DNA of 64,000 bases from assembly GCF_041886205.1 (NCBI RefSeq), contig NZ_CP169029.1; one strand, written 5' to 3'. The stretch is from Escherichia coli. Its GTDB lineage: Bacteria > Pseudomonadota > Gammaproteobacteria > Enterobacterales > Enterobacteriaceae. Every line of letters begins with the position of its first letter. The stretch's first letter is position 1. The notes below the pieces were generated by a model that searched no databases, had not been told where the DNA came from, and worked only from the letters and a program-made list of their open reading frames with translations. This document shows positions 23,473-48,906 of this stretch, in pieces. A program made the position numbers and the translations under genes.

Positions 23473-23539
23473 ACAGGCTCCGTAAACACGGGGCAAAATG
23501 CCCCGTGAACACTTAAGAAGGCAGGTATTAAGATAAAAA

Positions 23540-26443: not shown

Positions 26444-29400
26444 GGTGTGCTTGTTGGTTCCGCCCTGAATACACAGTCACAGACCCTGACCAACAGTGGT
26501 CTGTTGCAGGGGGAGGCCTCACTCACCGTTAACACACAGAGGCTTGATAATCAGCAGAACGGCACGCTGTACAGTGCTGCAGACCTGACGCTGGATATAC
26601 CGGACATCCGCAACAGCGGGCTTATCACCGGTGATAATGGTTTAACGTTAAACACTGCCTCCCTCAGCAATCCGGGAAAAATCATCGCTGACACGCTGAA
26701 CGTCAGGGCGACCACGCTGGATGGTGATGGTCTGTTGCAGGGCGCCGGTGCACTGGCGCTTGCAGGCGACACCCTCTCACAGGGCCGTAACGGACGCTGG
26801 CTGACGGCGGGCGACCTCTCCCTCCGGGGTAAAACACTGCATACCGCAGGGACCATGCAGGGACAGAATCTCACCGTGCAGGCGGACAACTGGGCGAACA
26901 GTGGCTCCGTGCTGGCAACCGGTAACCTTACTGCTTCGGCAACCGGTCAGTTGACCAGTACCGGCGATATCATGAGCCAGGGTGACACCACGCTGAACGC
27001 AGCCACCACGGACAACCGGGGCAGTCTGCTTTCGGCCGGCACGCTCTCTCTTGATGGAAATTCACTGGATAACAGCGGCACTGTCCAGGGTAACCATGTC
27101 ACGCTTCACCACAGAAGCACTGACAACAGCGGTACGGTCACGGGGCTGAGCGGTCTGACCCTGCACAGCGCGGACGGGCTTACCAACAGTGGCGCGCTGC
27201 TGAGCCAGAACTCGCTGGCGCTGAGCGCAGGAGATGTGACCAACAGCGGCCGGATTCAGGGGCAGAACATCACTCTGGATGCCAGCAGCCTGACCAGCAG
27301 CGGTGCTGTTCAGAGTGCGCTGGATTTGGCTCTGACCCTGAGTGGCGATGTTATTGCTGCCACCGGCAGCAAAATTACCGCCATGGGCGATGCCCGCCTG
27401 ACCGGGAAAGTGCTGGGTAACCAGGGATTAATCAGCGCGAAGACGCTGGAAGTGAATGGTGATTCGCTCAGCAACAGTGGCGAAATCAGTGGTGTTAACA
27501 GCCTGAACGTGACACTCAGTGGTAATCTGCAACAGCACGGTAAAATGCTGACAGGCGGTGCATTAAACGTCAACGCCAGAGACATCAGCAATAGTGGGCA
27601 GCTTCAGGGGGCGGATAACCGAATCACCGCCAGTTCGCTGACCAACTCAGGTCGTGTGCAGGGCGACAGCGGGCTGACTCTTACATTGCTGAATGCCCTG
27701 ACCAACCAGACCAGCGGTGTGCTTCTCAGCCAGAACGTATCAGCGCTTTCCGCACCCGTGCTGACCAATGACGGCACCATTCAGGGCAACGGTAAAACCA
27801 CGCTCAGCGCGGCAACGCAGGCCCACAACAGTGGCAAGATTCTTTCCGGCGGTGAGCTGACGTTCACCACGCCGGACTACAGTGGCAGTGGCTGGCTACA
27901 GGCCACTGACCTGCTGCTGAACGTGGCGAAGCTTGCCGGTAATGGCACTGTGATGGCGGCGAATCAGGCAACGCTCACAGGTAACAGTCTGACCAACCGT
28001 GGCCTGTTCCAGGCCGCACAACTGAACGTCAACACGCAGACCATCACCAACAGCGGCACGCTGCTGGGTAATCAGGGCCTGACAATAAAAGGGAACAGCC
28101 TGAACAACGCCGGCGGGAAGGTATTCAGCGGCGGTGATATGCTTGCTGATATGGTCTCGCTCAGCGGCGCGGGCCAGCTGGTTGCACTCGGTAACCTGAC
28201 GCTGAAGCTCACCCGTGGTTTGACAGCACAGGGCGTTATCGCCGCGAATAAACAACTCTCCGTCAGCAGCCAGGGTGATATTACCAATGGCGCCACATTG
28301 CAGGGCAACGGTATCACGCTGAATGCGGCGGGCAGGCTGACCAACAATGGCCAGTTGACCGCCGGCAACGGCACCACGGCACTGAGCGGCAGCGGGATTG
28401 CGATGAATGCCAGCGGCAGCCTGCAGGCAGGCGGGGACGTCAGTCTGACCAGCCGGGGGGATATCACTCTCGACGGTTTTACCGGCACGACGGGTAGTCT
28501 GATGTTAACGGCCGCCGGGTCAGTCATTAACGCCGCACTGTTGTATGCGGGCAATAACCTCTCGCTGTTTGCCAGCACCATCCGGAACCATCACGGCGAT
28601 ATGCTGGCGGGTGACAGCCTGGTGATGCAGAAAGATGTCAGTGGTGCCGCGAATGCTGAAGTGATTAATACCTCCGGGAATATCGAAACCACCCGCGGTG
28701 ATATCACCATCAGAACCGGACATTTACTGAATCAGCGGGAGGGTATAAATGAGACAAAATCATACATTCCGGTTGAGAATGTCGCAGTACCTGATGGTGC
28801 AAATTCTGTTTCAGTCAGAGTGGGCGATTTAGGTGAAGATGGATGGGGATATTATGTGAAGTCCTGGAGCGGTACTGCCGGTGGTGGTTTTGAGGCATGG
28901 GCCGTTCCGACTGAAAAGGGAGCCACCCGGAAATTTCTGACTGGCACAACACGCGTCGATGTTGGTGCAACAGGGGGGGATGCCAGAATTTCGGCCGGGA
29001 ATAATCTGCTGATTGACGCGGACAAACTGGATAATACGGGAAGTCATCTTCTTGCCAGCGAGTTTGTCAGCCTGTCGGGTTCACAACTGAATAATCAGTC
29101 CTTCTTTGGCTATACACAGGATGAATACAATGTGTATCGCTATTACGGCAAACTGGCCATGATCCCCAACGACGGGCATCTGCAGTATGGAGATGCTTCT
29201 GCCGATGATCGCGTTACCTTTACTCTCTCCGGAGCTCCGGAATATGTCACCAGAGACACCGGTCAGGCTCTGAGAGCCGTGATTCAGGCAGGCAAAAATG
29301 TCACTGCCGTTTTTTCCAGTGATATCAGTAATACATCCACAACCTCAAATGCAGGACGGATCACAAATACCCTTGCGGCACCTGAAATTAACACGCCGGC

Positions 29401-29553
29401 AGAGAAAAATATCAGCCCGGGAATGGCTCAACTGGCGCCGGATGGCACAGAGACGCTGACCGTCACGGCCCCGGACTGGACTGACACCATTACCCGTCTG
29501 ACGATCGGCAGTGGTACGGACCTGGCTTCCGGCATCGTGGTGGGGAACTATCC
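26444..29553 (+). pseudogene. cdiA: cdiA internal segment (filamentous haemagglutinin-type repeat region), 5'-truncated and fused in frame to the tnpC remnant
   Basis: Long Gly/Asn/Thr/Ser-rich repeat region (...LTNSGLLQGEASLTVNTQRLDNQ...); no cdiB or CdiA secretion domain upstream; interrupted at 29553 by IS186. Confidence 0.8.
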
Positions 29554-30892
29554 CATAAGCGCTAACTTAAGGGTTGTGGTATTACGCCTGATATGATTTA
29601 ACGTGCCGATGAATTACTCTCACGATAACTGGTCAGCAATTCTGGCCCATATTGGTAAGCCCGAAGAACTGGATACTTCGGCACGTAATGCCGGGGCTCT
29701 AACCCGCCGCCGCGAAATTCGTGATGCTGCAACTCTGCTACGTCTGGGGCTGGCTTACGGCCCCGGGGGGATGTCATTACGTGAAGTCACTGCATGGGCT
29801 CAGCTCCATGACGTTGCAACATTATCTGACGTGGCTCTCCTGAAGCGGCTGCGGAATGCCGCCGACTGGTTTGGCATACTTGCCGCACAAACACTTGCTG
29901 TACGCGCCGCAGTTACGGGTTGTACAAGCGGAAAGAGATTGCGTCTTGTCGATGGAACAGCAATCAGTGCGCCCGGGGGCGGCAGCGCTGAATGGCGACT
30001 ACATATGGGATATGATCCTCATACCTGTCAGTTCACTGATTTTGAGCTAACCGACAGCAGAGACGCTGAACGGCTGGACCGATTTGCGCAAACGGCAGAC
30101 GAGATACGCATTGCTGACCGGGGATTCGGTTCGCGTCCCGAATGTATCCGCTCACTTGCTTTTGGAGAAGCTGATTATATCGTCCGGGTTCACTGGCGAG
30201 GATTGCGCTGGTTAACTGCAGAAGGAATGCGCTTTGACATGATGGGTTTTCTGCGCGGGCTGGATTGCGGTAAGAACGGTGAAACCACTGTAATGATAGG
30301 CAATTCAGGTAATAAAAAAGCCGGAGCTCCCTTTCCGGCACGTCTCATTGCCGTATCACTTCCTCCCGAAAAAGCATTAATCAGTAAAACCCGACTGCTC
30401 AGCGAGAATCGTCGAAAAGGACGAGTAGTTCAGGCGGAAACGCTGGAAGCAGCGGGCCATGTGCTATTGCTAACATCATTACCGGAAGATGAATATTCAG
30501 CAGAGCAAGTGGCTGATTGTTACCGTCTGCGATGGCAAATTGAACTGGCTTTTAAGCGGCTCAAAAGTTTGCTGCACCTGGATGCTTTGCGTGCAAAGGA
30601 ACCTGAACTCGCGAAAGCGTGGATATTTGCTAATCTACTCGCCGCATTTTTAATTGACGACATAATCCAGCCATCGCTGGATTTCCCCCCCAGAAGTGCC
30701 GGATCCGAAAAGAAGAACTAACTCGTTGTGGAGAATAACAAAAATGGTCATCTGGAGCTTACAGGTGGCCATTCGTGGGACAGTATCCCTGACAGCCTAC
30801 AAAACGCAATTGAAGAACGCGAGGCATCGTCTTAACGAGGCACCGAGGCGTCGCATTCTTCAGATGGTTCAACCCTTAAGTTAGCGCTTATG
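29554..30892 (+). mobile_element. IS186 (IS4 family), 1339 bp, with a 10-bp target-site duplication GGAACTATCC
   Basis: Terminal inverted repeats CATAAGCGCTAACTTAAGGGTTG (29554) and CAACCCTTAAGTTAGCGCTTATG (ending 30892); GGAACTATCC at 29544-29553 and 30893-30902; the cdiA frame is restored across the insertion. Confidence 0.9.
29609..30721 (+). CDS. insL: IS186 transposase
   Basis: 370-aa product MNYSHDNWSAILAHIGKPEELDTSARNAG... from the ATG at 29609. Confidence 0.9.
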   Translation: MNYSHDNWSAILAHIGKPEELDTSARNAGALTRRREIRDAATLLRLGLAYGPGGMSLREVTAWAQLHDVATLSDVALLKRLRNAADWFGILAAQTLAVRAAVTGCTSGKRLRLVDGTAISAPGGGSAEWRLHMGYDPHTCQFTDFELTDSRDAERLDRFAQTADEIRIADRGFGSRPECIRSLAFGEADYIVRVHWRGLRWLTAEGMRFDMMGFLRGLDCGKNGETTVMIGNSGNKKAGAPFPARLIAVSLPPEKALISKTRLLSENRRKGRVVQAETLEAAGHVLLLTSLPEDEYSAEQVADCYRLRWQIELAFKRLKSLLHLDALRAKEPELAKAWIFANLLAAFLIDDIIQPSLDFPPRSAGSEKKN

Positions 30893-30902
30893 GGAACTAT
30901 CC

Positions 30903-33900
30903 CCTGCCTTCCGGTAACAATGGTTATTTTGTCCCGTCCACGGACCCGGACAGTCCGTATCTGATTACGGTGAATCCGAAACTGGATGGTCTCGGAAAGG
31001 TGGACAGCAGTCTGTTTGCCGGACTGTATGACCTGCTCAGGATGCACCCCGGGCAGGCACCACGTGAAACAGACCCGGCGTATACTGATGATAAACAATT
31101 CCCGGGCTCATCGTATTTTCTTGACCGGCTCGGGCTGAAACCGGAAAAAGATTATCGCTTCCTGGGGGATGCCGCTTTTGATACCCGCTATGTATCGAAC
31201 TATATGCTGAACCAGATCGGGGGGCGCTATATCAACGGGGTTGGTTCAGACACCGACCAGATGCGCTACCTGATGGATAACGCTGCCCGTGCACAGAAGG
31301 CGCTCGGTCTGAAGTTTGGTGTGGCACTGACAGCAGACCAGGTGGCGGCTCTCGACCAAAGTATTCTGTGGTATAAAGCCGTCACGATAAAGGGTCAGAC
31401 GGTGATGGTGCCGGAAGTGTATCTGTCACCGAAAGATGTGACGCTGCAGAACGGCAGTATTATCAGCGGTCAGAATGTGCACCTGGCAGGAGGGAATGTC
31501 ACTAACAGTGGCAGTACCCTGATGGCGCAGAATGATCTCACCATCGACAGCGCTGACAGTCTGGGTAACCTTGAGTCCGGGCTTATAAATGCCGGTGGCG
31601 CTCTCGGACTGAAAGCGATGGGCGATATCAACAATATCAGTGCCACGATTACCGGTAAGACTGTCCGGCTGGAGAGTCTCGCCGGCAATGTCAATAATCT
31701 CACCCGGTACTCACACTGGCAGCTTGATGCACCGGAAGACAGCCTCGCCCTGAAACACACTTATACGGGAAGCATTGCCTCTGTCAGTGCCATGGATAGT
31801 CTGGACATCCGGGCAGATAAAAACATTTCGGTCACAGGGGCAGAAATCAGCGCCGGAGGTCGCGCAGCACTTATTGCCGGCAATGATCTCAGTCTGAATG
31901 CCATTGACAGGGTAAGCAGCAGTCGCCATGCAAACAGTGAATCTCACCAGCGCAGTGCAGAACTTACGACCATTACTGCCGGCGACAGTGTGATGCTGAG
32001 TGCAGGCCGGGATGTGAGCAGTCAGGGTGCAGGTATCGCAGCGGAAGACAACATCACTGTCCGGGCCGGGCGCGACGTTAATCTGCTGGCGGAAGAGTCC
32101 GTGACCGGCAGCAGTTCATACTCGAAAAAGAAAACGGTCATTGATGAAACCGTTCGCCAGCAGGGAACGGAAATCGCCAGCGGTGGTGACACCACCATTA
32201 CTGCAGGACGGGATATCACCGCTGTTGCGTCATCCGTTACCGCAACCGGCAATATCAGTGTGAATGCCGGTCGTGATGTCGCCCTGACCACGGCGACAGA
32301 AAGTGACTATCACTATCTGGAAACGAAGAAAAAAAGCGGAGGTTTTCTCAGTAAGAAAACCACCCACACCATCAGTGAGAACAGTGCCACCCGTGAAGCA
32401 GGCGCCCTGCTGTCGGGGAACCGCGTGACCGTTAACGCCGGTGATAACCTGACAGTACAGGGTTCGGATGTGGTGGCTGACCGGGATGTGTCACTGGCGG
32501 CGGGTAACCATGTTGATGTTCTTGCTGCCACCAATACAGATACGTCCTGGCGCTTTAAGGAAACGAAGAAATCCGGTCTGATGGGTACCGGCGGTATTGG
32601 TTTCACCATTGGCAGCAGTAAGACAACGCACGACCGCCGCGAGGCCGGGACAACGCAGAGTCAGAGTGCCAGCACCATCGGCTCCACTGCCGGTAATGTC
32701 AGTATTACCGCGGGCAAACAGGCTCATATCAGCGGTTCGGATGTGATTGCGAACCGGGATATCCGCATTACCGGTGACAGTGTGGTGGTTGACCCGGGGC
32801 ATGACCGTCGTACTGTGGACGAAAAATTTGAGCAGAAGAAAAGCGGGCTGACGGTTGCCCTTTCCGGCACAGTGGGCAGTGCCATCAATAATGCGGTTAC
32901 CAGTGCACAGGAGACGAAGGAGAGCAGTGACAGCCGTCTGAAAGCCCTGCAGACCACAAAGACAGCGCTGTCTGGTGTGCAGGCCGGACAGGCTGCGGCA
33001 ATGGCCACCGCAACCGGTGACCCGAATGCGACGGGAGTCAGCCTGTCGCTCACCACCCAGAAATCGAAATCACAACAACATTCTGAAAGTGACACAGTAT
33101 CCGGCAGTACGCTGAATGCCGGGAATAATCTGTCTGTTGTCGCAACCGGCAAAAACAGGGGCGATAACCGCGGAGATATTGTGATTGCAGGAAGCCAGCT
33201 TAAGGCCGGTGGTAACACAAGCCTGGATGCCGCGAATGATATTCTGTTGAGTGGCGCTGCAAATACACAAAAAACAACGGGCAGGAACAGCAGCAGTGGC
33301 GGTGGCGTGGGTGTCAGTATCGGTGCCGGTGGTAACGGTGCCGGTATCAGTGTCTTTGCCAGCGTTAATGCGGCAAAAGGCAGCGAGAAAGGTAACGGTA
33401 CTGAGTGGACTGAAACCACAACAGACAGCGGTAAAACCGTCACCATCAACAGTGGTCGGGATACGGTACTGAACGGTGCTCAGGTCAACGGCAACAGGAT
33501 TATCGCCGATGTGGGCCACGACCTGCTGATAAGCAGCCAGCAGGACACCAGTAAGTACGACAGTAAACAGACCAGCGTGGCTGCCGGCGGCAGTTTTACC
33601 TTTGGCTCCATGACCGGCTCAGGTTACATCGCTGCCTCCCGGGATAAGATGAAGAGCCGCTTTGATTCCGTTGCTGAACAAACCGGAATGTTTGCCGGTG
33701 ACGGCGGCTTCGACATTACAGTGGGCAGACATACCCAACTGGATGGTGCGGTGATTGCCTCCACTGCCACACCGGATAAAAACCACCTGGATACCGGAAC
33801 GCTGGGGTTCAGTGACCTTCACAACGAAGCGGATTATAAAGTCAGTCACAGTGGAATCAGTCTGAGCGGTGGTGGCAGCTTCGGGGATAAATTTCAGGGT

Positions 33901-35406
33901 AACATGCCGGGTGGCATGATATCCGCCGGAGGTCACAGCGGACATGCGGAAGGAACGACTCAGGCCGCAGTGGCAGAAGGCACTATCACCATCCGGGACA
34001 GGGACAATCAGAAGCAGAATCTGGCGAACCTGAGCCGTGACCCTGCGCACGCTAATGACAGTATCAGCCCGATATTTGACAAGGAGAAAGAGCAGAGGCG
34101 TCTGCAGACAGTGGGGCTTATCAGTGACATAGGCAGTCAGGTGGCGGATATTGCGCGTACACAGGGAGAACTGAATGCGTTGAAGGCCGCGAAGGAAGCA
34201 ACCGGCGAAACACTTCCTGCTAATGCAACAGAGAAACAACGTCAGGAATATCTTGCGAAACTGCGTGACACGCAGGCTTACAGGAATGAAATGGCGAAGT
34301 ATGGCACTGGTAGTGAAATTCAGCGGGGTATCCAGGTCGCGATGGCAGCGCTTCAGGGCCTGGCGGGCGGCAATATGGCAGGCGCGCTGGCAGGTGCTTC
34401 AGCGCCGGAGCTGGCGAACATCATCGGTCATCACGCGGGTATTGATGACAATACAGCTGCAAAAGCCATTGCCCATGCCATTCTCGGTGGTGTGACAGCA
34501 GCCCTTCAGGGCAACAGTGCGGCAGCAGGCGCAATTGGCGCGGGTACTGGCGAAGTGATCGCGTCAGCCATTGCGAAAAGCCTCTACCCGGACGTAGATC
34601 CGTCGAAACTGACAGAAGAGCAGAAGCAAACTGTAAGCACGCTGGCAACGCTGTCAGCGGGTATGGCCGGCGGTATTGCCAGTGGCGATGTGGCTGGCGC
34701 GGCTGCTGGGGCTGGTGCCGGGAAGAACGTTGTTGAGAATAATTTACTTGGCGGTAGTGAAGATGCTCAGGCTGCGTGGATACGCCAGCATGGTATCGAC
34801 ATGGCGACATGTGCAGAAAACCCTTCCGGTGCCGCCTGCCAGAAAGCAATGAATGAGAGGGATGCTGTAGGGCTGGCTCTGGCAACAGGTACAGTGGCAC
34901 TACTCCCCGGTAGTGCTCAGGCTATGTGGGGACTGGGAGCAAGTGCGAATGCTGGTATCAGTTATCTGGCTGATGGTACTGTAGATCCGGCAAACGCAGC
35001 CATTGCAGGCTGGGTGAATGTGTTCAGCATGGGTAATGGCCTGGCGGGGACTGTGGGCTGGAATGCGGCAGGTGGTGCGCTGGGTAACTGGATCGACAAC
35101 AAAGATCCTCTGTCTGGTGCAATTTCAAATGGTATCGGTTCTGCTGCCGGGTATGGTATCGGTAAAGGTGTTACTTGGGGGACAGATAAGATTACGAATG
35201 CTGTAGGAAAATGGGTGACAAATGGCTGGGATCCTAAGTACGATCCAACATGGATAAAATATGCTGAAGTAAATCGTAACGATATCATTCGAGAAGGCAT
35301 GAAACCGAGCAATGTTCCTGGAACTGCTGGAGATATTGGCGGTTCTATAGGATCTGAGCTAGGTGGAAAAGTAACAGATAAAGTATCTGAGGAACTCAAG
35401 AAATGA
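30903..35406 (+). pseudogene. cdiA: cdiA 3' portion: repeat region, pretoxin region, VENN motif (34732..34743) and a Gly-rich C-terminal toxin domain (CdiA-CT)
   Basis: In-frame continuation of 26444..29553 once IS186 and one duplicate are removed; ...[15 protein letters not shown]... precedes a Gly/Ala-rich CT resembling membrane-acting CdiA-CTs. Confidence 0.8.
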
Positions 35407-35660
35407 AATATTCTTCTCGAGTGGTAATAGGTAAGTTTATTATATGCAGTTCAATTCTCTTATTGTGTTTTATTGGCATGATCTTAGCGGCCATAATAAC
35501 TAAACTAACGTTTGTAGCGTTAGCATGGTTTCAAAGCGGGATTTTTGAAGTTTTGTGGAGCGATATTGTTTATGCTGCTCAGTTGGGTGGTCTGGGGGGG
35601 GGCATATTAGGTTTTTGTTGGGTTTTGTTATATCTTTTTAGGGCAAAGGGCTTTAGTTGA
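35403..35660 (+). CDS. cdiI: CdiI immunity protein (85 aa, integral membrane)
   Basis: Overlaps the cdiA stop (ATGA); hydrophobic small protein [35 protein letters not shown]... Confidence 0.75.
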
Positions 35661-36564
35661 GAATAACTACCTCAGCTACGACGAGGCGCATGCTTTTGAC
35701 AGAGAAATGACGGCCTGTCGTAAAGCGGGTGGAGACTGTGGCGATATTCAGAATAAATATGCTGTATTAAGCGCAGAGAACCGACAGAAATTACACATTG
35801 ATGTGGCTGCAGATCCTCTTACGGCTCTGTCCGGGGAAGATAAATGGAATATTGAGGGCGGACTCAGCGCGGCGGGCCGACCTGGCTGGCTGTATGGTTC
35901 ACTGACTAATCAGGAGGTGAAGGATTACGTGACTGAAGGCAACAGCTACGACCTGAACTATCTGAACAGTAATACGTCGAAGGGTGACAGGGCTCTGGCT
36001 TTCTTCGGGGAACCGGAAAATTACTGGGGTACGGTTGCCGGAGCGGGTTCGTTGTTAACGTCATCAGCCACGCTGACTGAAAAATTTGTCAGTGCCGGGC
36101 TGAGCTATGGGGCTAATGGTGCGGTACAAATTGGTACGGGAAATATCGGTGATAAGTTCGATTATCTCAGTTTCATGATGTCAGGCTTGACTGGTGTAGG
36201 TACAGCCGGGAAAGGATATTACGCTAACCAGTTGTTGGGTGCTGGTAGTGCTTACATGAGCAGCCAGATTGAAGGCCAGGACAGTACCGCATCAGTAGTG
36301 GGTAGCATGGCTGGTACAGGCCTAGGATATAACGTTGGTGCTTCAATTACTAATAAGTTAGAAGCTCAATACATCAAAAATCAACTGGGAATGGACGCCA
36401 GTAAATATTCACTGCAATATTCGGAAAAGTCTATCGGATACGGTATGTATCAAGGCGGACAAATGAGTTCTATACCAGGAACATTTGGTGGATTTGTTGG
36501 TTCATTCGTATCAGAAGGTGCAAGCAGCGCAACGCAAAAAGAAGTTGATGGAGACAAAAAATGA
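35656..36564 (+). CDS. orphan cdiA-CT module 1 (VENN onward; no start codon of its own)
   Basis: Begins [55 protein letters not shown]...; ORF track 35707..36564. Confidence 0.7.
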   Translation, partial: VENNYLSYDEAHAFDREMTACRKAGGDCGDIQNKYAVLSAENRQKLHIDVAADPLTALSGEDKWNIEGGLSAAGRPGWLYGSLTNQEVKDYVTEGNSYDLNYLNSNTSKGDRALAFFGEPENYWGTVAGAGSLLTSSATLTEKFVSAGLSYGANGAVQIGTGNIGDKFDYLSFMMSGLTGVGTAGKGYYANQLLGAGSAYMSSQIEGQDSTASVVGSMAGTGLGYNVGASITNKLEAQYIKNQLGMDASKYSLQYSEKSIGYGMYQGGQMSSIPGTFGGFVGSFVSEGASSATQKEVDGDKK

Positions 36565-36779
36565 AAAAATATCTACTACTTCTTATTAAGTTGTTACTTA
36601 TATCTATAGCTACTTGCTCTATTGGAATAGTGGTTAGTATCTGGCTTATAGCTCGGGAACCAATACCTTCTGAGGTGTATGTAAAATACGGAATAATTGG
36701 CGCAGTAGTTGGCTTATGGGGAGGTGCTGGGATTTGGTTACAACTCTATCTACAAATGCGAAGATACTATCGTAAATAG
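36561..36779 (+). CDS. orphan cdiI immunity 1 (72 aa, membrane)
   Basis: ATGA overlap with the preceding CT; hydrophobic product MKKYLLLLIKLLLISIATCSIGIVVSIWL... Confidence 0.65.
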   Translation: MKKYLLLLIKLLLISIATCSIGIVVSIWLIAREPIPSEVYVKYGIIGAVVGLWGGAGIWLQLYLQMRRYYRK

Positions 36780-36784
36780 TTGTT

Positions 36785-37429
36785 GTTGAGAATAACTCAC
36801 TGGCGCATGTACTGGCAGCAGCGGAAGCGAACAAAGCAGGGACTGCAGAGAAATGGCAGGAAGAGCAGCAGGCTGCGATTAGAGAGGCGTGCAGTGGTGG
36901 TACGCCGGTTTCGTGTGAAACAGCAGTCGCAGCGATGGGAAGTGCAATGGTATGGCCGCTATTGCCAGGGGCGGCAGCCACTACAAGTCTGATAGGTGCA
37001 GGAGCGAATGCCGGCATCGGGTTACTGATTAACGGTGAAGTGAATCCAAATGATGTCATTCTTGGTTACTGGACGGGAGTCTTTACAGCAGGAACTAGGC
37101 TGTGGGGGACGATGGGTGTGAATGCGGCCAGCGGAGCCACATCCAGCTATCTAAAAGGTGATGATCCGCTGAAAGGTGGGGCAATGGGGGGAATGTCGTC
37201 AGGATTAGGATATGGTGCTGGCAAAGTTCTTCAGGGGCAACTCGATAAGTTCATTAATCCAAACTGGAAGAATTGGGAGTGGGTTGATGTTGGTATGGGC
37301 ATATCGAAGCCAATGCCATTAGATCCACTGCCTGGGGTTATCGGCAATATGGGAGGTTCTGCGTCTACAGAATACATCAACGATCGAATAGGAAAATCTT
37401 TGAGTGATAAATCAGGAGATAAGAAATGA
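36785..37429 (+). CDS. orphan cdiA-CT module 2 (VENN onward)
   Basis: Begins VENNSLAHVLAAAEANKAGTAEKWQEEQQAAIREACSGG...; ORF track 36935..37429; Gly-rich CT. Confidence 0.7.
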   Translation, partial: VENNSLAHVLAAAEANKAGTAEKWQEEQQAAIREACSGGTPVSCETAVAAMGSAMVWPLLPGAAATTSLIGAGANAGIGLLINGEVNPNDVILGYWTGVFTAGTRLWGTMGVNAASGATSSYLKGDDPLKGGAMGGMSSGLGYGAGKVLQGQLDKFINPNWKNWEWVDVGMGISKPMPLDPLPGVIGNMGGSASTEYINDRIGKSLSDKSGDKK

Positions 37430-37680
37430 GTTCTTCTGACCGCAAAAAGATCCTGATCCTTTTAATATGCATGGTGACTGGTAGTGCTGTTGGTGTTTTT
37501 ATAACCATACTATCTATGTCTTTATTAATAGATATATATCTATATATCGCAGAAGGTATAAGGTTAGACATGCATACATATAATCTTGAAAAACTTTTTA
37601 AAGTAAGTTCATTCTGTGGTTGTATAGGCGGCGGTGGCTGTTGGTTACTCTATTATCGAAATTATAGAAAAAATAAATAA
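37426..37680 (+). CDS. orphan cdiI immunity 2 (84 aa, membrane)
   Basis: ATGA overlap; MSSSDRKKILILLICMVTGSAVGVFITILSMSLLIDIYL... Confidence 0.65.
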   Translation: MSSSDRKKILILLICMVTGSAVGVFITILSMSLLIDIYLYIAEGIRLDMHTYNLEKLFKVSSFCGCIGGGGCWLLYYRNYRKNK

Positions 37681-37683
37681 TAG

Positions 37684-37809
37684 TTGAGAATAACTACCTC
37701 AGCTACGACGAGGCGCATGCTTTTGACAGAGAAATGACGGCCTGTCGTAAAGCGGGTGGAGACTGTGGCGATATTCAGAATAAATATGCTGTATTAAGCG
37801 CAGAGAACC
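37684..37809 (+). pseudogene. remnant duplicate of the 5' end of orphan cdiA-CT 1, closed by a TAG
   Basis: 37684-37806 matches 35656-35778 ([45 protein letters not shown]) then TAG. Confidence 0.7.
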
Positions 37810-39173
37810 GACAGAAATAGGATATTGCCGGGCTCAGCCGGGACCCGGAAAACGCCAACGGCAGCATTGCACCGATATTTGACAGGGAGAAAGAGCAGAA
37901 GCGTCTTCAGGAAGCGCAGGTTATCAGCCAGATTAGCGGTCAGATGAGTAACATCGTCATGACGTATGGCGAAACTGAAGCGATGAAAGCAGCCAGGAAA
38001 GAGCATCCTGGCATGAGCGATGCACAGTTGCGGGAGACTCCGGAATACAGAGAGGTCATGAAAGGCTACGGTACGGGCAGTACGCCGCAGATGGTGGTAC
38101 AGGCCATCACAGGCGTGCTGGGCGGACTGAATGCAGGGAATCCGGGGCAGGTACTGGCTGGCGGTCTGAATCCGGCAGTGGCACAGCTTATAAAACAGGC
38201 CACCGGCGATAACCGGGAAGCAAACCTGATGGCTCACGCAGTCTGGGGAGCGCTTGCCGCACAACTGGGCGGAAACAATGCGGCTTCCGGTGCTGCAGGG
38301 GCATTCAGCGGTGAACTTGCAGCCCGGTATATCATTGATAACTACTACGGTGGTCGTACCGATAACCTGAGTGAACAGGAACGTCAGCAAATCAGCATGC
38401 TGGCCACCATTGCCTCAGGTATTGCGGGCGGGCTTGTCGGCAACAGTACAAGTGCTGCCGGTACGGGGGCACAGGCAGGCAGGAACTCGGTTGAGAATAA
38501 TGCGCTGAGTCTGGTTGCCAGAGGCTGTGCGGTCGCAGCACCTTGCAGGACTAAAGTTGCAGAGCAGTTGCTGGAAATCGGGGCGAAAGCGGGCATGGCC
38601 GGGCTTGCCGGGGCGGCAGTCAAGGATATGGCCGACAGGATGACCTCCGATGAACTGGAGCATCTGATTACCCTGCAAATGATGGGTAATGATGAGATCA
38701 CTACTAAGTATCTCAGTTCGTTGCATGATAAGTACGGTTCCGGGGCTGCCTCGAATCCGAATATCGGTAAAGATCTGACCGATGCGGAAAAAGTAGAACT
38801 GGGCGGTTCCGGCTCAGGAACCGGTACACCACCACCATCGGAAAATGATCCTAAGCAGCAAAATGAAAAACCTGTAGATAAGCTTAATCAGAAGCAAGAA
38901 AGTGCGATTAAGAAGATCGATAACACTATAAAAAATGCTCTGAAAGATCATGATATTATTGGAACTCTCAAGGATATGGATGGTAAGCCAGTTCCTAAAG
39001 AGAATGGAGGATATTGGGATCATATGCAGGAAATGCAAAATACGCTCAGAGGATTAAGAAATCATGCGGATACGTTGAAAAACGTCAACAATCCTGAAGC
39101 TCAGGCTGCGTATGGCAGAGCAACAGATGCTATTAATAAAATAGAATCAGCCTTGAAAGGATATGGAATATGA
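37810..39173 (+). CDS. orphan module 3: pretoxin region, VENN and a distinct C-terminal toxin domain, derived from a different cdiA allele
   Basis: ...[26 protein letters not shown]... parallels the main cdiA pretoxin region (34010-34740); VENN within [14 protein letters not shown] track 37944..39173. Confidence 0.7.
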
Positions 39174-39556
39174 TTACCTTACGTAAATTGATTGGAAACA
39201 TCAATATGACAAAAGAGCCTGAGCAACAATCACAGCTTGAACTCTGGTTCGAACGTATCATAGATGTGCCTCTTGAAAAGTTAACAGTGGAAGATCTTTG
39301 CCGCGCTATCCGACAAAATTTATGTATTGATCAGTTGATGCCAAGAGTGTTGGAAGTTCTAACTAAAGAGCCGTTAGCGGGTGAATATTACGATGGTGAA
39401 CTAATTGCAGCTTTATCAACGATAAAAGGAGAAGATCTAAAAGATCAGAAAAGTACCTTTACCCAAATAAGGCAACTTATAAACCAGCTAGAACCGTCAG
39501 ATATTAACGATGATTTAAGAAAAGATATATTAAAAATCAATCAGATAATTGTATAA
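39170..39556 (+). CDS. orphan cdiI immunity 3 (128 aa, soluble)
   Basis: ATGA overlap with the module 3 stop; product [43 protein letters not shown]... Confidence 0.6.
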
Positions 39557-39588
39557 CTAATCCCGGTCACTGAGCCGAGATCTTCTTT

Positions 39589-41380
39589 GTGTGCCGGGCA
39601 TGTTCAGCAGCTCGGGGGTGAAAGTCCCCTGTCCAGCCTGATGGTGGCGAAGGACTAGCGAAGCGCAAGGGCGTCGTCGTAAGGCGGGGTCTGAAGGAAG
39701 CGTGAAGCAAATCCATGACCTGACGAACAGAAATCCGATACGAGGCCTACCCGGTTGGCGGAGCAAGCAAAGAATTGCGAAGGCCATAACCATCAAGAAC
39801 CGGGGGGTAAATCGGACAGGTGTGTGGTGAAGGCGTCTGAACTTACCCCGGGAGGCCTGTCCGTCGTTCTGTATCTAGAACTTAGCGTACCGTAAGGGGC
39901 GCTGACCGGCGGACAGGAGTCAGCAGAGGGCATAGTAGGGCATGACACCCGAAGGCCCGAACGGTAATGAGTGACGAGTATCAACGGAGGTTCTGAACGG
40001 TCATGCAGCAGAAAACGCATCGCGCCCCTGAGGCCGGAGAACGGGGTGAAGCCCCGAACGCCGCCCTTCCGGGGGCTGAAACCGTGCAGGCACCGACGAA
40101 CAGAGAAAGTCCGTCGTCAACAGTGTGGCTGATGGAAGCCATTTGTGAACCAGTCAATCTCAGGCAAGCCCTGAAAAGAGTTAAAGCCAACAAAGGTGCA
40201 GCGGGAGTCGATGGTATGCGCGTAAGCGAACTGCCGGACTACCTGAGGCACCACTGGCCAGAGCTGAAAGCGCAACTACTGTCTGGCAGATACCGCCCAT
40301 CTCCTGTGAGAAGAGTGTCCATACCGAAGCCCGGCGGCGGCGAACGTCTGCTGGACATCCCGACGGTGGTGGATCGCTTCATCCAGCAGGCGATGATGCA
40401 GGTATTGCAGGGGCACTGTGGGATAGCTCGTTCAGCGATAACAGCTACGGGTTCCGTCCCGGTCGTTCGGCCCACCAGGCAGTGATACAGGCCCGGGAAC
40501 ATATCGGGGCCGGGTATCACTGGGTGGTCGACCTCGATCTGGAGAAGTTCTTCGACCGGGTAAATCACGATGTGCTGATGAGCCGGATAGAGAAACGAGT
40601 ATCGGATAAACGGGTGTTGTCACTTATCCGCAGGTTCATGAATGCAGGGGTGATGGACGCAGGTCTGGTAAGGCCGGTGACAGAAGGAACGCCGCAGGGC
40701 GGCCCACTGTCGCCGCTGCTATCGAACCTGCTGCTTGACGACCTCGACAAGGAACTGGAGAAACGTGGTCTGAAGTTCGTGCGGTACGCAGACGACTGTA
40801 ATGTCTACGTGAAAAGCGAACGGGCAGACAACCGGATCATGGCGGGGTTGACGCACTGGCTGAGCCATAAACTGAAGCTGAAGGTCAACGCGAAGAAGAG
40901 TGCTGTAGCACGCCCTGAAACGCGCAAGTTCCCTGGATACAGCTTCATAAGGGGGCGGAAGGTATGGTGCGTGGTATCGCCGGAGTCGATAAAACGGTTC
41001 AAAATGCGGATAAGAGCACTGACCGGACGCAACACAGGGAGAAGCCTTGAACAGCTAACCCGGTTGCTAAAACGATATCTGACGGGCTGGAAAAGTTACT
41101 ACGGGCTGAACCAGAGGCCATCGCTGATGCGAGAGCTGAACGGATGGATAAGGCGCAGTCGAGGCGTAAGCAAGGACCTTGCGGCGCAAACAGCAGGAAG
41201 CTGCCATAAAGAGTGGCGGATAAGCTGTAGTCCGGCACTGAATATAGCACTCCCCAATAATCTGTTCTCCAGACTGGGCCTGCCAGAAGTATAGGCAGGC
41301 GACGATCAACATAACCGAACCGCCGTATACGGCCCCATACGTACGGTGGTGTGGGAGGAAGCTGATCGTGAGATCAGCTC
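39589..41380 (+). mobile_element. bacterial group II intron (about 1.8 kb) with a frameshifted intron-encoded protein
   Basis: 5' GTGTG at 39589; internal ORFs encode reverse-transcriptase motifs including the YADD box; a domain V-like hairpin (ACCGCCGTATACGG...ACGTACGGTGGT) lies near 41318-41350; the 3' boundary is approximate (about 20 bp either way). Confidence 0.7.
40003..41294 (+). pseudogene. group II intron reverse transcriptase/maturase split into two ORFs by a frameshift
   Basis: ORF 40003..40485 ends ...QGHCGIARSAITATGSVPVVRPTRQ while the next frame reads SSFSDNSYGFRPGRSAHQAVIQAREHIG... and continues into ORF 40482..41294, which carries ...FVRYADDCNVYV... Confidence 0.75.
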
Positions 41381-41446
41381 CTATCCCGATTTAACCGTCA
41401 GTCTCCCCCAAAATGCCCGTCCTGGCGCTTGTACACTGGCATATTG

Positions 41447-41535
41447 GCATGATCTTAGCGGCCATCATAGCTAAACTAACGTTTGTAGCGTTAACATGGT
41501 TTCAAAGCGGGATTTTTTAAGTTTTGTGGAATGAT
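41447..41535 (+). pseudogene. partial duplicate of cdiI (matches 35473-35561)
   Basis: GGCATGATCTTAGCGGCCAT[CA]ATA[GA]CTAAACTAACGTTTGTAGCGTTA[AG]CATGGTTTCAAAGCGGGATTTTT shared with the cdiI gene. Confidence 0.6.
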
Positions 41536-41956: not shown

Positions 41957-43444
41957 TCACCCGGAGAAGGTAAATCCCTCAAGAGGCAGCAACTCTGCCA
42001 GTCGCTCCTCCGGCCACTCCGGCAGACGCATCAGGACGTCTGTCAGCCAGGCATGCGGCTCCAGACCGTTGCGTTTCGCGGTTTCCAGCAAGCTCATTAT
42101 TTGCGCGGCGCGTTCTCCTGCCATCTGCGAACCGGCGAACAGCCACGATTTTCTGCCCAGGACCACGTTTTTGATGGCCCGTTCACACACATTATTATCC
42201 AGCGGCACCGCACCATCTTCCAGGAAGCGGCTTAGTTCCACGCGATGAGACAGCGCATAGACAATGGCTTTGTGTAATGCCCTTCCCGGAGAACATTGCG
42301 GTTCCTGCTCTTCAAGCCATGACCACAGATCTTCCAGTATCGGACGGGCATAACGCTGTCGCCACTGGCGGATTTTTTCCACGGGGCGGCTACTGATCTT
42401 CTTCTCAAGACGGTACAACCCCGCGATTTTCTTCACGGCGATGGCAGCCCGTGGATCTTTACTGATTTTATACAGGTCGGCGAAGCCCCTGCGGGCATGG
42501 GACCAGCATCCGGCCAGCGTGATCTCCGGCACTTTGTTTGCCAGAGTCCGGTAAGCTTTATGTCCGTCGACAACCAGCGTCCCGCCCCAGCCCTGAAGCC
42601 AGTTTTCAGGATACTCATGGCTACGTCCGGTCCGGCAGTTGAAGCACACAACTGACGGTCCCGTCCTTTCTCCACTGACGTATGCCCACAGATAACCGGA
42701 GCAGGATTTACCGCCTTTCTTCGTGTTCAGGAGCTTCAGGGTAGTCTCATCTGCATGCACCACCGGACGGTTTATCAACTCGCGATGGAGTAACGCCGCC
42801 AGGGGAGATAATGCGGCACCCGCCGCGCCAACCATGTCAGCCATCGAACTGACGGGAAGCCCGACATCTGAACGGGCAAAGACCTGTTGCTGGCGATACA
42901 GAGGCAGGTGGTCACCGTATTTATTGATGATCACCTGTGCGATGACTGATGGCTCAACGGCACTTTTCGGGAGGATATGTGCCGGCATTTCACCGCTGAA
43001 CACCTTCTGGCAACAGGGACAACTGTATTGCGGACGGACATAACAGTTCACCACGAAGTGAGCGGGAATATACTCCAGCTTTTCACTCACCGCATCACGG
43101 ATATAGTGCAGCGGCTCGTCACATTCAGGGCAATGGTCAGTGTCCGGCTGGATAATTTTTTCCACCCGTGGAAGATGAGCCGGTAAGGATTTGCGTATCG
43201 GGCGTGAACGGGACGCTTTTTCGTCTTCTTCAGGGGATTGCGGGAGCAGTTTATCCAGATGTGCGGTAAGCGCGGCGATATCGACATCAACATCCTCTTC
43301 GAACAGGGAGCGTTGCATACCAGCCAGCGTTTCACATTTTTTACCGAAGCGCTGTTGACGAACCAGTTTCAGCATTTCTTCCAGAAGCTGGATGCGCCGG
43401 CTTTTCTCCAGTAATTCCCGCTCTTTTTCGGCATTCTCCGACAT
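41957..43444 (-). CDS. tnpC: IS66-family TnpC transposase (495 aa)
   Basis: MSENAEKERELLEKSRRIQLLEE...CPECDEPL...DGAVPLDNNVCERAIKNVVLGRKSWLFAGS... Confidence 0.85.
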   Translation of the reverse strand: MSENAEKERELLEKSRRIQLLEEMLKLVRQQRFGKKCETLAGMQRSLFEEDVDVDIAALTAHLDKLLPQSPEEDEKASRSRPIRKSLPAHLPRVEKIIQPDTDHCPECDEPLHYIRDAVSEKLEYIPAHFVVNCYVRPQYSCPCCQKVFSGEMPAHILPKSAVEPSVIAQVIINKYGDHLPLYRQQQVFARSDVGLPVSSMADMVGAAGAALSPLAALLHRELINRPVVHADETTLKLLNTKKGGKSCSGYLWAYVSGERTGPSVVCFNCRTGRSHEYPENWLQGWGGTLVVDGHKAYRTLANKVPEITLAGCWSHARRGFADLYKISKDPRAAIAVKKIAGLYRLEKKISSRPVEKIRQWRQRYARPILEDLWSWLEEQEPQCSPGRALHKAIVYALSHRVELSRFLEDGAVPLDNNVCERAIKNVVLGRKSWLFAGSQMAGERAAQIMSLLETAKRNGLEPHAWLTDVLMRLPEWPEERLAELLPLEGFTFSG

Positions 43445-43564
43445 GACTTTTTATACCATGGCAAGTGCCATGGCACGCAGTTTTTCGATGTCATTCGTGG
43501 TGTTGAGAGCGGAGATGTCCATACAGGGGAGCATACCACTCCGGATACGGATATTAATTATTTT

Positions 43565-43957
43565 TCAATTAGTTAGCAGTGTATTTTGCGTGTTTTCAGG
43601 GCGCAGTTCAGGTTCATTCTGCCAGACCCATTTCGTCAGGTCATGTCCCTTAACCTGCTGCCAGTCAACACCGGCAATCAGCCAGTTAAACTCGTCGGGA
43701 GTGAGGTGCCAGGCAGCATCATTTGCACATGGCCAGCGGAAGCTGCCTTTGTGCAGACGGCGGGTACACAACCACACCCCGTGTTTATCCCACCGGAGAA
43801 CTTTGATACGCGAACGGGCTTTGTTAACAAAGACGAAGGCGGCTCCCCCATGCCATATCGACCGGAGTTCATCCTGTATATACTGCGTCAGTGCGTCGAT
43901 GCCCCGGCGCATGTCAACAGGTTTAATTGCGATGAAGACATTATCAGGACTGAGCAT
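43565..43957 (-). CDS. tnpB: IS66-family TnpB
   Basis: Start MLSPDNVFIAIKPVDMRRGIDAL within ORF 43565..44251. Confidence 0.75.
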   Translation of the reverse strand: MLSPDNVFIAIKPVDMRRGIDALTQYIQDELRSIWHGGAAFVFVNKARSRIKVLRWDKHGVWLCTRRLHKGSFRWPCANDAAWHLTPDEFNWLIAGVDWQQVKGHDLTKWVWQNEPELRPENTQNTLLTN

Positions 43958-44273
43958 ATTTGAGCGCCCTGAAGACATCGGTAAGTTGTGACGGCTGACA
44001 GCACATCCGTACTCCACCGGGAAGGAGGAGCGTGACTGGCTCATTCGTGACGGGCTGTGGTACATCAGCATGCAGTGGTGGCGCAATATGAACGGGAAGA
44101 ACGGTCGGTTCATTTGCCCGGCGTTCAGCTTTTGCGACATCCTGCGGCCATTCGCGAAGTGATGTGAAGGGAATATCGTTGAGTTCACAGTATTGCTGAC
44201 GTGTAAGACCACTGGCGCGCCAGGCAGCACGTTGCTGCCTTTTCTGTTCAATGGTCCATCGGGGTTTTGACAT
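43944..44273 (-). CDS. tnpA: IS66-family TnpA
   Basis: 109 aa, MSKPRWTIEQKRQQRAAWRASGLTRQQYCELNDIPFTSLREW... Confidence 0.8.
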   Translation of the reverse strand: MSKPRWTIEQKRQQRAAWRASGLTRQQYCELNDIPFTSLREWPQDVAKAERRANEPTVLPVHIAPPLHADVPQPVTNEPVTLLLPGGVRMCCQPSQLTDVFRALKYAQS

Positions 44274-44357
44274 TGATTATCTCCGGTAAGTTGGTGAATG
44301 AATGTCGGTAATGCTAACTGACTGAAAATCTCTGTGAAGATGACTTCCCCGTAACGA

Positions 44358-45413
44358 CACCTTCTTTATCGCCTGCCGAATGACGCTGTTCAGCGATTCG
44401 ATGGCATTCGTCGTGTAGATGGCCTTGCGGATATCCGGTGGGTAACCGAAGAAGGTGTTGAGATTTTCCCAGTGTGTGCGCCAGCTCTTGCTGATTTGCG
44501 GGTATTTTTTATCCCAGACGCCTGCAAACTTATCCAACGCCATCAACGCAGCTTCCTCTGTCGGGGCCTGATATACCGCTTTCAGCCCGCTGGTGACGGC
44601 TTTGTAATCCTTCCACGACACGAATTTCAGGCTGTTGCGCACCATATGGATGATGCAGAGCTGAATATGCGTCTGCGGGTATACGCTATTTATCGCTTCC
44701 GGGAAGCCTTTCAGGCCGTCCACGCAGGCAATCAGGATGTCCTGAAGGCCACGATTTTTCAGCTCAGTCAGTACACCCAGCCAGAACTTTGCACCTTCAT
44801 TTTCTGCCAGCCACATACCCAGCAGCTCTTTCTGACCGTCGGTATTGATGCCCAGCGCGAGGAACACCGCTTTGTTAATGACACTCCCGCCGTGACGAAC
44901 CTTAACCACAATACAGTCAAGATAAACAATGGGATACAGTGCATCCAACGGTCGGTTTTGCCATTCAGAGACCTGTTCTTTAACCGCATCGGTCACTTTG
45001 GATATCAGCGTGGGCGAGACATCGGCGTCGTACATTTCTTTGAACGTGGCAACGATTTCCCGCGTAGTCATGCCTTTGGCATACAGGGACAAAATCTGGC
45101 TGTCCATCTGGGTGATGCGTGTCTGATGCTTCTTAATTAGTTGCGGTTCGAAGGTATTTTCACGGTCACGCGGCGTGTTAAGTTCGATCTCGCCATCATC
45201 GCACAATACCGTTTTTGACGAGTAGCCATTACGGGTATTAGAGCCTGATTTAGGAGCATTTTTCTCATGACCGAGATGGTCAGTCAGTTCTGCATTGAGC
45301 GCCGTTTCGACGGTAAGCTTTGTCAACATGCGTGAAAACTGGTTGAGGTCGGCTTCGGTTTTAAGGCCTTTGGCCAGTTCAGCCGCAAGAGCTTTAAGTT
45401 TCTTTTCGTCCAT
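44358..45413 (-). pseudogene. IS256-family transposase, 3'-truncated by IS66-family element 4
   Basis: ORF 44277..45413: MDEKKLKALAAELAKGLKTEADLNQF...; the native sequence ends at ...AIKK and the last 25 codons are read from the IS66 terminal repeat. Confidence 0.75.
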
Positions 45414-45718
45414 CGTTTGCCTGTCTCCGTTGTTGGAGTGAACATATCAAAAACAGGCAATTACACAATTTTAATTACAGTCTCTTCGGTTATTAACGAA
45501 ACTCAACAATAGCGCCTGGTTGTGAAACCAGTTTAACCATTTGAAGCTTAAACTCATTTGAAAATGATCTGCGGGGTTTTGCAGATAATGTTTTCTGTTC
45601 CATAACAGGTGTCCACTAGTTTTGAAGGTGGGCACCTACGTTACCAATACTGGCTTAATGTGTATTAGCTCAGACCTGATCTGACAGTTACCGGTTATTT
45701 ATACAGGTATCTGTCAGA

Positions 45719-46759
45719 TTACATCTGGCTTAAATTTTTCTCGACCCAGATGCGTTTTCCATCAAGTAACGTTTCCATTGGCGTCCGCCCATTGCACATT
45801 TTTCCCTGATGGGTTCGCTCATTATTATAGTGAGCCAGCCATTCATCAAGATCCGACTGTAATGTATCAAGATCGCCGTACAGTTTTTTACGGAACGTTA
45901 CCTGATAAAATTCGTTCAGGATTGTTTTATGGAACCGCTCGCAGATGCCGTTGGTCTGCGGGGACATCGCCTTTGTTTTCGTGTGTTCTATATCGTTTAT
46001 TGCCAGATAAAGCTGATAATCATGCTGCTCTACTTTGCCACAGTACTCCGTGCCTCTGTCGGTCAGTATTCTCAGCATCGGCAGGCCCTGAGACGCATAA
46101 AACGGCAGTACACGATCATTCAGTAAGTCAGCTGCGGTAATCGGTGTTTTGGTGACGTAAAGCTTACAGTGAGCCACTTTCGAGTACGTATCAACGAACG
46201 TCTGCTGATAAATACGCCCGACACCTTTCAGGTTGCCTACATAGAACGTGTCCTGCGAACCCAGATATCCAGGATGAGCCGTTTCGATTTCGCCACAGGC
46301 CTCGTCATCACTGGCTTTACGCTCCAGTGCTGCGATCTGGCTGTCAGTTAGCTCAATGCCATCACGGGCTACTTTTTCTTCCAGTGCTTTCAGACGTTTT
46401 TTGAAATTCTCAAGGTTATGGCGTAACAAGACAGAACGGACACCACTGCCGGAGATAAAAACGCCCTGTTTACGCAGCTCGTTGCTGGTCCGGTGCTGAC
46501 CGTGTGCCGGGAAAGCGACGGCGTAATCAACAACAGCCTGTTCAGTTGCCTCATCGGTACGGTTCTTAAGGTTAGGAGCGCGGCGACTACGATTAATCAG
46601 CGCATCCACACCGCCTTCATCGACCAGTTCGCGGTAACGATAAAACGTATCACGCGAAACGCCCATGATTTTACAGACTTTTGATTCGTTGCTGAGTTCT
46701 TCCGCCAGATTGAGCAAACCGGCTTTGTGTTTGATAACGGGATTGGTAGTATGAAGCAT
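45719..46759 (-). CDS. single-ORF DDE (integrase-core) transposase, IS481-family-like
   Basis: ORF 45719..46804; N-terminal HTH (...KVCKIMGVSRDTFYRYRELV...) and integrase-core region (...LTDRGTEYCGK...SPQTNGICERFHKTI...). Confidence 0.6.
   Translation of the reverse strand: MLHTTNPVIKHKAGLLNLAEELSNESKVCKIMGVSRDTFYRYRELVDEGGVDALINRSRRAPNLKNRTDEATEQAVVDYAVAFPAHGQHRTSNELRKQGVFISGSGVRSVLLRHNLENFKKRLKALEEKVARDGIELTDSQIAALERKASDDEACGEIETAHPGYLGSQDTFYVGNLKGVGRIYQQTFVDTYSKVAHCKLYVTKTPITAADLLNDRVLPFYASQGLPMLRILTDRGTEYCGKVEQHDYQLYLAINDIEHTKTKAMSPQTNGICERFHKTILNEFYQVTFRKKLYGDLDTLQSDLDEWLAHYNNERTHQGKMCNGRTPMETLLDGKRIWVEKNLSQM

Positions 46760-46936: not shown

Positions 46937-48906
<1,970 letters not shown>

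Follow-up and report, generated by a model that had tools for sequence, protein, structure and literature searches.

Three orphan cdiA-CT/cdiI modules in tandem behind the immunity gene of a decayed contact-dependent inhibition locus in Escherichia coli

The window analyzed here, a 64,000-nt stretch of Escherichia coli contig NZ_CP169029.1 (assembly GCF_041886205.1), carries a contact-dependent inhibition (CDI) locus in which the toxin-encoding 3′ end of a resident cdiA gene (cdiA-CT; CT, C-terminal toxin region) and its immunity gene (cdiI) are followed, at 35656–39556, by three further toxin/immunity modules in tandem. The sequence GTTGAGAATAAY, which encodes the VENN motif, was found at five exact sites in the 64-kb window (34732, 35656, 36785, 37683, and 38490), all on the plus strand; the number of such sites expected by chance was 0 (100 shuffles). 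These five sites open the resident cdiA-CT, three orphan modules (designated o1, o2, and o3), and one short fragment. The resident cdiA-CT (34732–35406, plus strand) runs from VENN to the stop codon and encodes a Gly-rich, ionophore-type toxin, and the resident cdiI (35403–35660, plus strand) encodes a protein of 85 amino acids (aa) with two hydrophobic helices. Translated from their VENN sites, o1, o2, and o3 each gave an open toxin frame without internal stops; their VENN codons (at 35656, 36785, and 38490, respectively) lie directly behind the preceding cdiI stop or a joint, and none of these three sites is preceded by a two-partner secretion (TPS) domain or a long filamentous haemagglutinin (FHA) region. 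In all four toxins (resident, o1, o2, and o3), the toxin stop codon overlaps the immunity gene start codon as ATGA.

Orphan modules as described by Poole 2011 (PMC3150448) are VENN fragments without the N-terminal secretion and filament regions, located downstream of cdiA/cdiI and followed by a small putative immunity open reading frame (ORF), with the same CT/cdiI pair present on a full-length cdiA elsewhere; o1, o2, and o3 show each of these features, the ORFs behind them encoding 72, 84, and 128 aa. An earlier reading of this stretch from its letters alone (the sequence-only reading) had described three orphan cdiA-CT/cdiI modules in tandem at 35656–39556, two with a membrane immunity protein and one with a soluble immunity protein, and had pointed to full-length cdiA genes of other strains as a place where these CTs might be found. 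The VENN sites and ATGA overlaps bear out both the coordinates and the description, hydropathy agrees in that CdiI-o1 and CdiI-o2 are strongly hydrophobic while CdiI-o3 is soluble, and full-length cdiA genes ending in the respective CT were found for o1, o2, and o3. None of the eight toxin/immunity proteins matched an NCBIfam family. In the RefSeq annotation of ZYB39, the closest complete genome, the equivalents of the array genes are named "hypothetical protein".

CDI ionophore toxins, of which CT-EC93 is the founding member, combine a variable N-terminal entry domain with a five-helix ionophore domain that contains a glycine zipper, and their CdiI proteins are two-helix hairpins of 72–100 aa (PMC11630599). 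The E. coli ionophores fall into six groups set by entry domain and receptor; a YciB-dependent entry domain (TA271/EC869 o11 type) defines group 4, while the receptors of group 5 are the putrescine importers PuuP and PlaP (PMC11630599). The first orphan module consists of the o1 cdiA-CT (35656–36564, plus strand), which encodes a YciB-type entry domain and an ionophore domain, and cdiI-o1 (36561–36779, plus strand), which encodes a hydrophobic protein of 72 aa and starts in the ATGA overlap with the toxin stop. Residues 10–160 of o1 match residues 5–157 of 4G6U_A, the N-terminal domain of EC869 CdiA-CT o11 (E = 7.7e-15), and the two share a Cys pair (CRKAGGDC in o1 aligned with CRKSGGNC in 4G6U_A); the entry domain of o1 is thus a homologue of the one in the TA271/EC869 o11 DNase toxin, including the conserved disulfide pair. 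Pfam gave a weak CdiA_helical match (E = 0.014). By entry-domain homology only, o1 is classified as a putative group 4-like CDI ionophore; the accessions of the CdiA proteins that carry o1 were not found in the supplement lists of PMC11630599, which counts against the group 4 call. CT-o1 shows 97–99% protein identity to the tips of full-length cdiA genes in strains CFS3292, QA-1986 630, MEI4BO-21, and PapRG-04-4, and CdiI-o1 differs at a single residue (Y4H) from the version that follows full-length cdiA genes.

The second module comprises the o2 cdiA-CT (36785–37429, plus strand) and cdiI-o2 (37426–37680, plus strand), which encodes a hydrophobic protein of 84 aa. Pfam gave nothing useful for o2. 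Its CT and cdiI are identical (100% DNA identity) to those of full-length cdiA genes in BN01, 33F4, CFS3273, and 7-58 72A, and CdiI-o2 is identical to WP_040088721.1, which is found behind full-length cdiA genes with an o2-type CT. The CdiA protein of BN01 (WP_113983914.1) is present in both group 5 blocks of the S1 Appendix of PMC11630599, with BLAST statistics identical to those of PSU-3786; through its identity to BN01, o2 has a CT of the PSU-3786/TMC005 type in the grouping used by those authors. We accordingly place o2 in group 5, with PuuP/PlaP as its predicted route of entry. The first 321 nt of the o2 CT, corresponding to the entry domain, were also found at 98.8% identity on plasmid pO104_H21 of strain 94-3024 (6001–6323), and the same remnant is present on approximately 40 similar virulence plasmids of Shiga toxin-producing E. 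coli, where it is unannotated and lies between IS3 copies near saa and espP. An assignment of o2 to group 3 through 94-3024, listed as a group 3 strain in S1 Table, was considered and dropped, because the plasmid match is this unannotated remnant and not the cdiA of that strain.

The sequence-only reading had taken the three toxin domains to be mutually unrelated, which does not hold for the first two, as the C-terminal domains of o1 and o2 are homologous to each other and to that of the resident CT. In BLASTP comparisons, CT-o2 is 34% identical to the resident CT (E = 1e-20), CT-o1 matches the resident CT with E = 2e-6, and the C-terminal domains of CT-o1 and CT-o2 match each other with E = 4e-5. 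A profile-profile comparison of o1 with the resident CT over the C-terminal domain gave a probability of 97.5% and E = 6e-12 across 151 columns; for this comparison, the homologue alignments were trimmed to the C-terminal domain, the untrimmed version being inflated by shared pretoxin sequence. CT-EC93 matches the C-terminal domain of o1 (E = 1.8e-6) and the resident CT (28% identity, E = 2.7e-4). The direct comparison of o2 with CT-EC93 was not significant (E = 0.31), and the link of o2 to EC93 is therefore transitive, through the resident CT, together with the listing in PMC11630599. Small-xxx-G-xxx-small motifs are present in the ionophore-type CTs, so that o1, o2, and the resident CT each combine a C-terminal domain homologous to the CT-EC93 family with a glycine-zipper-type motif. 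On the immunity side, CdiI-o1 (72 aa) and CdiI-o2 (84 aa) both reach a maximum 19-residue Kyte-Doolittle value of 2.5, with a strongly hydrophobic N-terminal stretch and a Gly-rich C-terminal segment, and agree in length and hydropathy with the very hydrophobic, 72–100 aa two-helix hairpins of the ionophore CdiI family. From these similarities, modules 1 and 2 are predicted to encode CDI ionophores, each paired with a membrane CdiI of the two-helix kind. The homologue search returned both CT types (o1 and resident) across Enterobacterales, as orphan-sized fragments only.

The resident CdiI is WP_000877779.1, a protein that is also found behind resident-type CTs in other strains; both CFS3292 and O157:H7 strain FRIK944 have the resident CT itself as an orphan, and strain 11 has it on a full-length cdiA. 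Accessions of CdiA proteins with the resident CT had no match in the supplements of PMC11630599; their WP numbers are high, probably later than the 2024 lists. Membership of the resident CT in group 6 is plausible, because the S6 Fig legend of PMC11630599 states that some group 6 toxins have ionophore domains in common with group 5.

The third module differs in kind. It comprises the o3 cdiA-CT (38490–39173, plus strand), cdiI-o3 (39170–39556, plus strand), which encodes a soluble protein of 128 aa, and, in front of the toxin, a pretoxin region (37821–38489, plus strand) of 223 in-frame codons with a PT-VENN domain (PF04829, E = 7e-17). CT-o3 is identical to the CdiA-CT of E. coli 536 in 226 of 227 residues (5J5V_B, E = 4e-148; the same toxin is present in PDB entries 5J43 and 8ZYC), and CdiI-o3 is identical to the 536 CdiI in 127 of 128 residues (5J5V_C, E = 2e-78). 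The 536 CdiA-CT is a latent transfer RNA (tRNA) anticodon nuclease, active solely when bound to CysK (PMC5562914, PMC11724271), and binds CysK through a C-terminal tail that ends in Ile (PMC5562914); the C-terminus of CT-o3, KGYGI, is shared with the 536 toxin. With the toxin domain, the Ile-ending CysK-binding tail, and a 536-type CdiI all present, o3 is identified as the CdiA-CT of E. coli 536, a predicted CysK-dependent tRNase, with its cognate CdiI. The toxin that the sequence-only reading could not assign can thus be named; the earlier failure to place it may reflect the weak Pfam signal for Ntox28 (E = 0.013), the domain under which the 536 toxin is listed, with FtsH-dependent entry, in the table text of the Discussion of PMC11630599. 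The o3-type CT forms the tip of full-length cdiA in 536, UTI89, C311, and many other strains.

DNA identity of module 3 to strain 536 (99.6%) begins exactly at the VENN codons and ends 97 nt beyond the cdiI stop. The pretoxin region upstream of this VENN has only 43% protein identity to the resident cdiA, as opposed to 97.5% DNA identity to the full-length cdiA genes of MEI4BO-21 and 88-3493, and therefore comes from a different cdiA allele, as had been supposed when an extended pretoxin region of foreign origin was first noted in module 3.

Between cdiI-o2 and this pretoxin region lies the short VENN-headed fragment, a stump of the o1 module (37681–37820, plus strand). From its VENN codons (37683–37820), it has 45 codons (VENN and 41 more) and terminates in a TAG at 37818–37820; positions 37681–37818 are an exact copy (100% identity) of 35654–35791. 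The sequence-only reading had reported a 123-bp duplicate of the start of module 1, closed by a stop and marking a recombination joint: the duplicate is real, although its exact length is 138 bp, and the joint is supported by the TAG located precisely where o1 and cdiA sequence meet and by a 5-nt microhomology. In the parental sequences, o1 reads CAGAAAT followed by TACAC and cdiA reads CAGAAGC followed by AGGATATT, while the joint reads CAGAAAT followed by AGGATATT; the two parents share CAGAA, the reading frame is kept across the joint, and the TAG is created by it. It is equally possible that this stop codon arose in two steps, through an in-frame fusion and a later C-to-T change.

The same joint, uninterrupted, was found in 9 of 5426 complete E. 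coli genomes, mostly from cattle (CFS3273, RM8082, BN01, 33F4, 32F4, 33E, ZYB62, USMARC-49610, and ZYB39, in the last case at a second cdi locus), and is therefore inherited rather than private to the source strain. Its surroundings vary. In BN01, the joint lies behind cdiI-o2, as in the window, but another CT follows the VENN; at the second ZYB39 locus, the block opens at the o1 VENN and stands behind a different module; the 536 CT was found behind the joint only in the window and at the first ZYB39 locus. At that first locus (15100–17800), the stump is split, at the equivalent of window position ~37798, by the IS66-like insertion sequence (IS) ISCro1 with an 8-bp target duplication, GTATTAAG, so that the window represents the empty site and comes from a strain or isolate that is related to ZYB39 but distinct from it. 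In 7-58 72A and OkiPb01714, o2 is directly followed by o1. Since o2 is normally followed by o1 in other strains, the "duplicate" is the stump of an o1 module that once followed o2; its interpretation as a local copy of module 1 has to be abandoned, given this order and the presence of the joint in BN01, CFS3273, 33F4, and others. The CT behind the scar appears to have been swapped since then by recombination at VENN.

Module 3 is accordingly a composite, made up of a 45-codon o1 stump, the TAG made by an illegitimate joint, 223 pretoxin codons of another allele, and, from VENN onward, the 536 tRNase and its CdiI. At least two different CT/cdiI pairs were seen behind the o1-stump/pretoxin composite, and its upstream context likewise took at least two forms. 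It is conceivable, if improbable, that the o1 stump, the TAG, the 223 pretoxin codons, and the second VENN together form a conserved mobile adapter cassette; such a cassette would offer one homology arm for o1-containing arrays and another for cdiA genes of the second pretoxin class, and toxin tips could then cross between cdiA classes that are otherwise too dissimilar in their pretoxin regions to recombine.

Upstream of the array, the resident cdiA is heavily eroded. A chimeric ORF (26057–29596, plus strand) represents the 5′-truncated gene, with the N-terminus of an IS66 TnpC transposase fused to cdiA haemagglutinin repeats: Pfam places zf-IS66 and LZ_Tnp_IS66 at residues 1–129, followed by Fil_haemagg repeats, and found no TPS domain in this ORF. 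IS66 tnpA and tnpB are located just upstream of the ORF. The fusion of TnpC and haemagglutinin repeats, within a decayed region that spans 25857–30904, is in frame. An IS4-family element (29542–30904, plus strand) with 35-nt inverted repeats (29542–29576 and 30870–30904) is inserted in the gene as well; its transposase matches NF033592 above the cut-off (133 bits), and the element is missing from the ZYB39 copy of the locus. No cdiB-sized ORF was found within the window. A functional cdiBAI locus has a cdiB and an uninterrupted cdiA with a signal peptide and a TPS domain, a combination that this locus does not present, and the resident cdiA is a pseudogene that cannot function. RefSeq calls the ZYB39 equivalent of the resident cdiA a pseudogene.

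Taken together, we consider that 35656–39556 holds three orphan cdiA-CT/cdiI modules arrayed in tandem after the cdiI of a decayed CDI locus, and that this array likely serves as a set of immunity genes and as recombination stock (probability of about 0.9). Recombination within or close to the VENN codons probably built the array, the same pieces being shuffled among E. coli cdi loci; the order of the modules differs between strains. Because the toxin fragments have no secretion domain, the resident cdiA is truncated and interrupted, and CdiB is absent, the locus cannot deliver a toxin. The intact cdiI genes, if transcribed, may protect the cell from neighbors that deploy these three toxins, and the toxin-tip sequences may persist as a stock for recombination onto a functional cdiA elsewhere. 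Immunity and toxin activity of the pairs in the window are predicted from near-identity to pairs that have been characterized (536) or catalogued (group 5). The ZYB39 genome contains, at its second cdi locus (901959–918162), an apparently intact 9.5-kb cdiA with its own orphan array, including the o1-stump/pretoxin block. By analogy, a functioning CDI system may exist elsewhere in the source strain. Two observations on expression weigh against a role for the array: promoter-like sites in 34600–39700 are no more frequent than in shuffled sequences, and the operon promoter upstream of the array has been lost to IS66.

The main rival explanation is that the array is a neutral, decaying remnant of an IS-eroded cdi island, neither expressed nor selected. 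We regard this as unlikely. In its favor, the erosion is extensive (the IS66 fusion, the IS4 insertion, the cdiI fragment and the group II intron with its frameshift downstream, and a further ISCro1 in ZYB39) and the promoter signal is not above chance. The state of the genes themselves speaks against a remnant of this kind: the three cdiI ORFs are intact, each 0–1 residue from copies behind functional-looking cdiA genes, and the toxin frames are without internal stops. In addition, Poole 2011 (PMC3150448) reports that the orphan CdiI of EC93 is expressed. A second alternative holds that internal start codons (such as ATG at 35707 or ATG at 37944) allow translation of the toxin fragments, which would then act inside the cell with their immunity proteins as addiction-type toxin-antitoxin pairs that stabilize the island. 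ORFs with these start codons do exist (35707–36564, 285 aa; 37944–39173, 409 aa), and RefSeq annotates their equivalents as proteins; yet both ATG codons lie within entry or pretoxin sequence, elsewhere the same sequences belong, in frame, to CdiA proteins of 3,000 aa, and CDI ionophores, according to PMC11630599, depend on their entry domain and on being delivered from outside, all of which makes internal toxin-antitoxin action very improbable. Finally, repeats like the VENN-proximal ones can mislead assemblers, but there is next to no chance that the 138-bp duplicate and its joint are an artefact of collapsed or chained repeats, as nine complete genomes, independent of one another, carry the identical joint and as it is bracketed in ZYB39 by ISCro1 with a clean 8-bp target duplication.

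An orphan array behind a decayed CDI locus resembles, in most respects, what has been described for the arrays of EC869/O157:H7 and EC93 (PMC3150448), which have VENN-to-VENN module borders, variable pretoxin retention, disruption by IS elements, and, in EC93, a 536-like orphan. As in those arrays, VENN fragments without start codons precede small cdiI genes in tandem behind cdiI, pretoxin retention varies, IS elements interrupt the array, and the CTs occur on full-length cdiA elsewhere. In FRIK944 (O157:H7), which has an EC869-like array, the first orphan is the o1 of the window and the sixth is its resident CT, while the 536-related orphan of EC93 is 73% identical to o3. The window differs from the EC869 and EC93 arrays in its non-functional upstream cdiA, its lack of cdiB, and the order of its modules, and also in that a 45-codon stump of one module is fused in frame to another through a joint-made TAG. 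With groups 4 and 5 of the ionophore family described by Halvorsen 2024 (PMC11630599), the window shares two-domain CTs in which a short, Cys-containing entry domain precedes a Gly-rich C-terminal domain, and its hydrophobic CdiI proteins of 72–85 aa agree with that family; here, however, the CTs are orphans and not tips of full-length CdiA, and the group 5 toxin tested in PMC11630599 was CT-TMC005, not the o2 allele of the window. Strain 536 (PDB 5J43, 5J5V, and 8ZYC) matches in toxin (226/227), CdiI (127/128), and flanking DNA, including the 5′ end of the intron described below, but its CT is the tip of a functional cdiA with a pretoxin of the resident type of the window, whereas o3 is joined at VENN to the pretoxin of another allele and stands without a secretion apparatus.

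All three pairs match toxins that are already on record, and the locus shows no departure from Poole 2011, from Halvorsen 2024, or from the structural work on 536. It illustrates clearly how CDI toxin tips are exchanged at the VENN boundary in E. coli and adds little that is new: the same three modules are gene tips in some strains and orphans in others, and one old recombination scar has been handed down in cattle-associated strains even as the toxin that follows it was swapped. Genes currently annotated as "hypothetical" could be renamed as a group 4-like ionophore with its CdiI, a group 5 ionophore with its CdiI, and the 536 tRNase with its CdiI. Expression of the immunity genes, if it occurs, would make the strain resistant to three types of toxin that it is unable to deliver from this locus.

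Directly after cdiI-o3, a group II intron with a frameshifted reverse transcriptase (39589–41390, plus strand) travels with the 536-type module. It matches Rfam models RF02001 (130 bits) and RF01998 (50 bits) for domains D1–D4, with a weak RF00029 match for domain V/VI, and shares 87% identity with introns whose ltrA is intact; here, two ORFs (40003–40485 and 40482–41294) make up the split reverse transcriptase, and both match TIGR04416. The intron is followed by a 94-nt cdiI fragment of the resident type (41442–41535, plus strand), 94% identical to 35471–35564 in the middle of the resident cdiI, which is part of a conserved block downstream of 536-type cdiI genes. The block of intron and cdiI fragment is also present behind cdiI-536 in C311, A2, and C41, while in strain 536 no more than the first ~64 nt of the intron are left, with an IS66 fragment behind them. 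After the array, a dense run of IS-type ORFs extends over 41957–48906, which indicates the edge of an IS-rich island; the names given in ZYB39 to the ORFs of this run are IS66 (with an internal stop), ISEc39 (IS256-like), IS481, and IS21. On the other side, upstream of the cdi remnant, the minus strand carries an F17-type fimbrial operon (19163–24088) that encodes the F17A adhesin, a chaperone, and an usher, and that fits a bovine-associated background; the interval between this operon and the cdi remnant contains an AT-rich stretch (GC content of 0.27 at 24000–24500) and a potE fragment.

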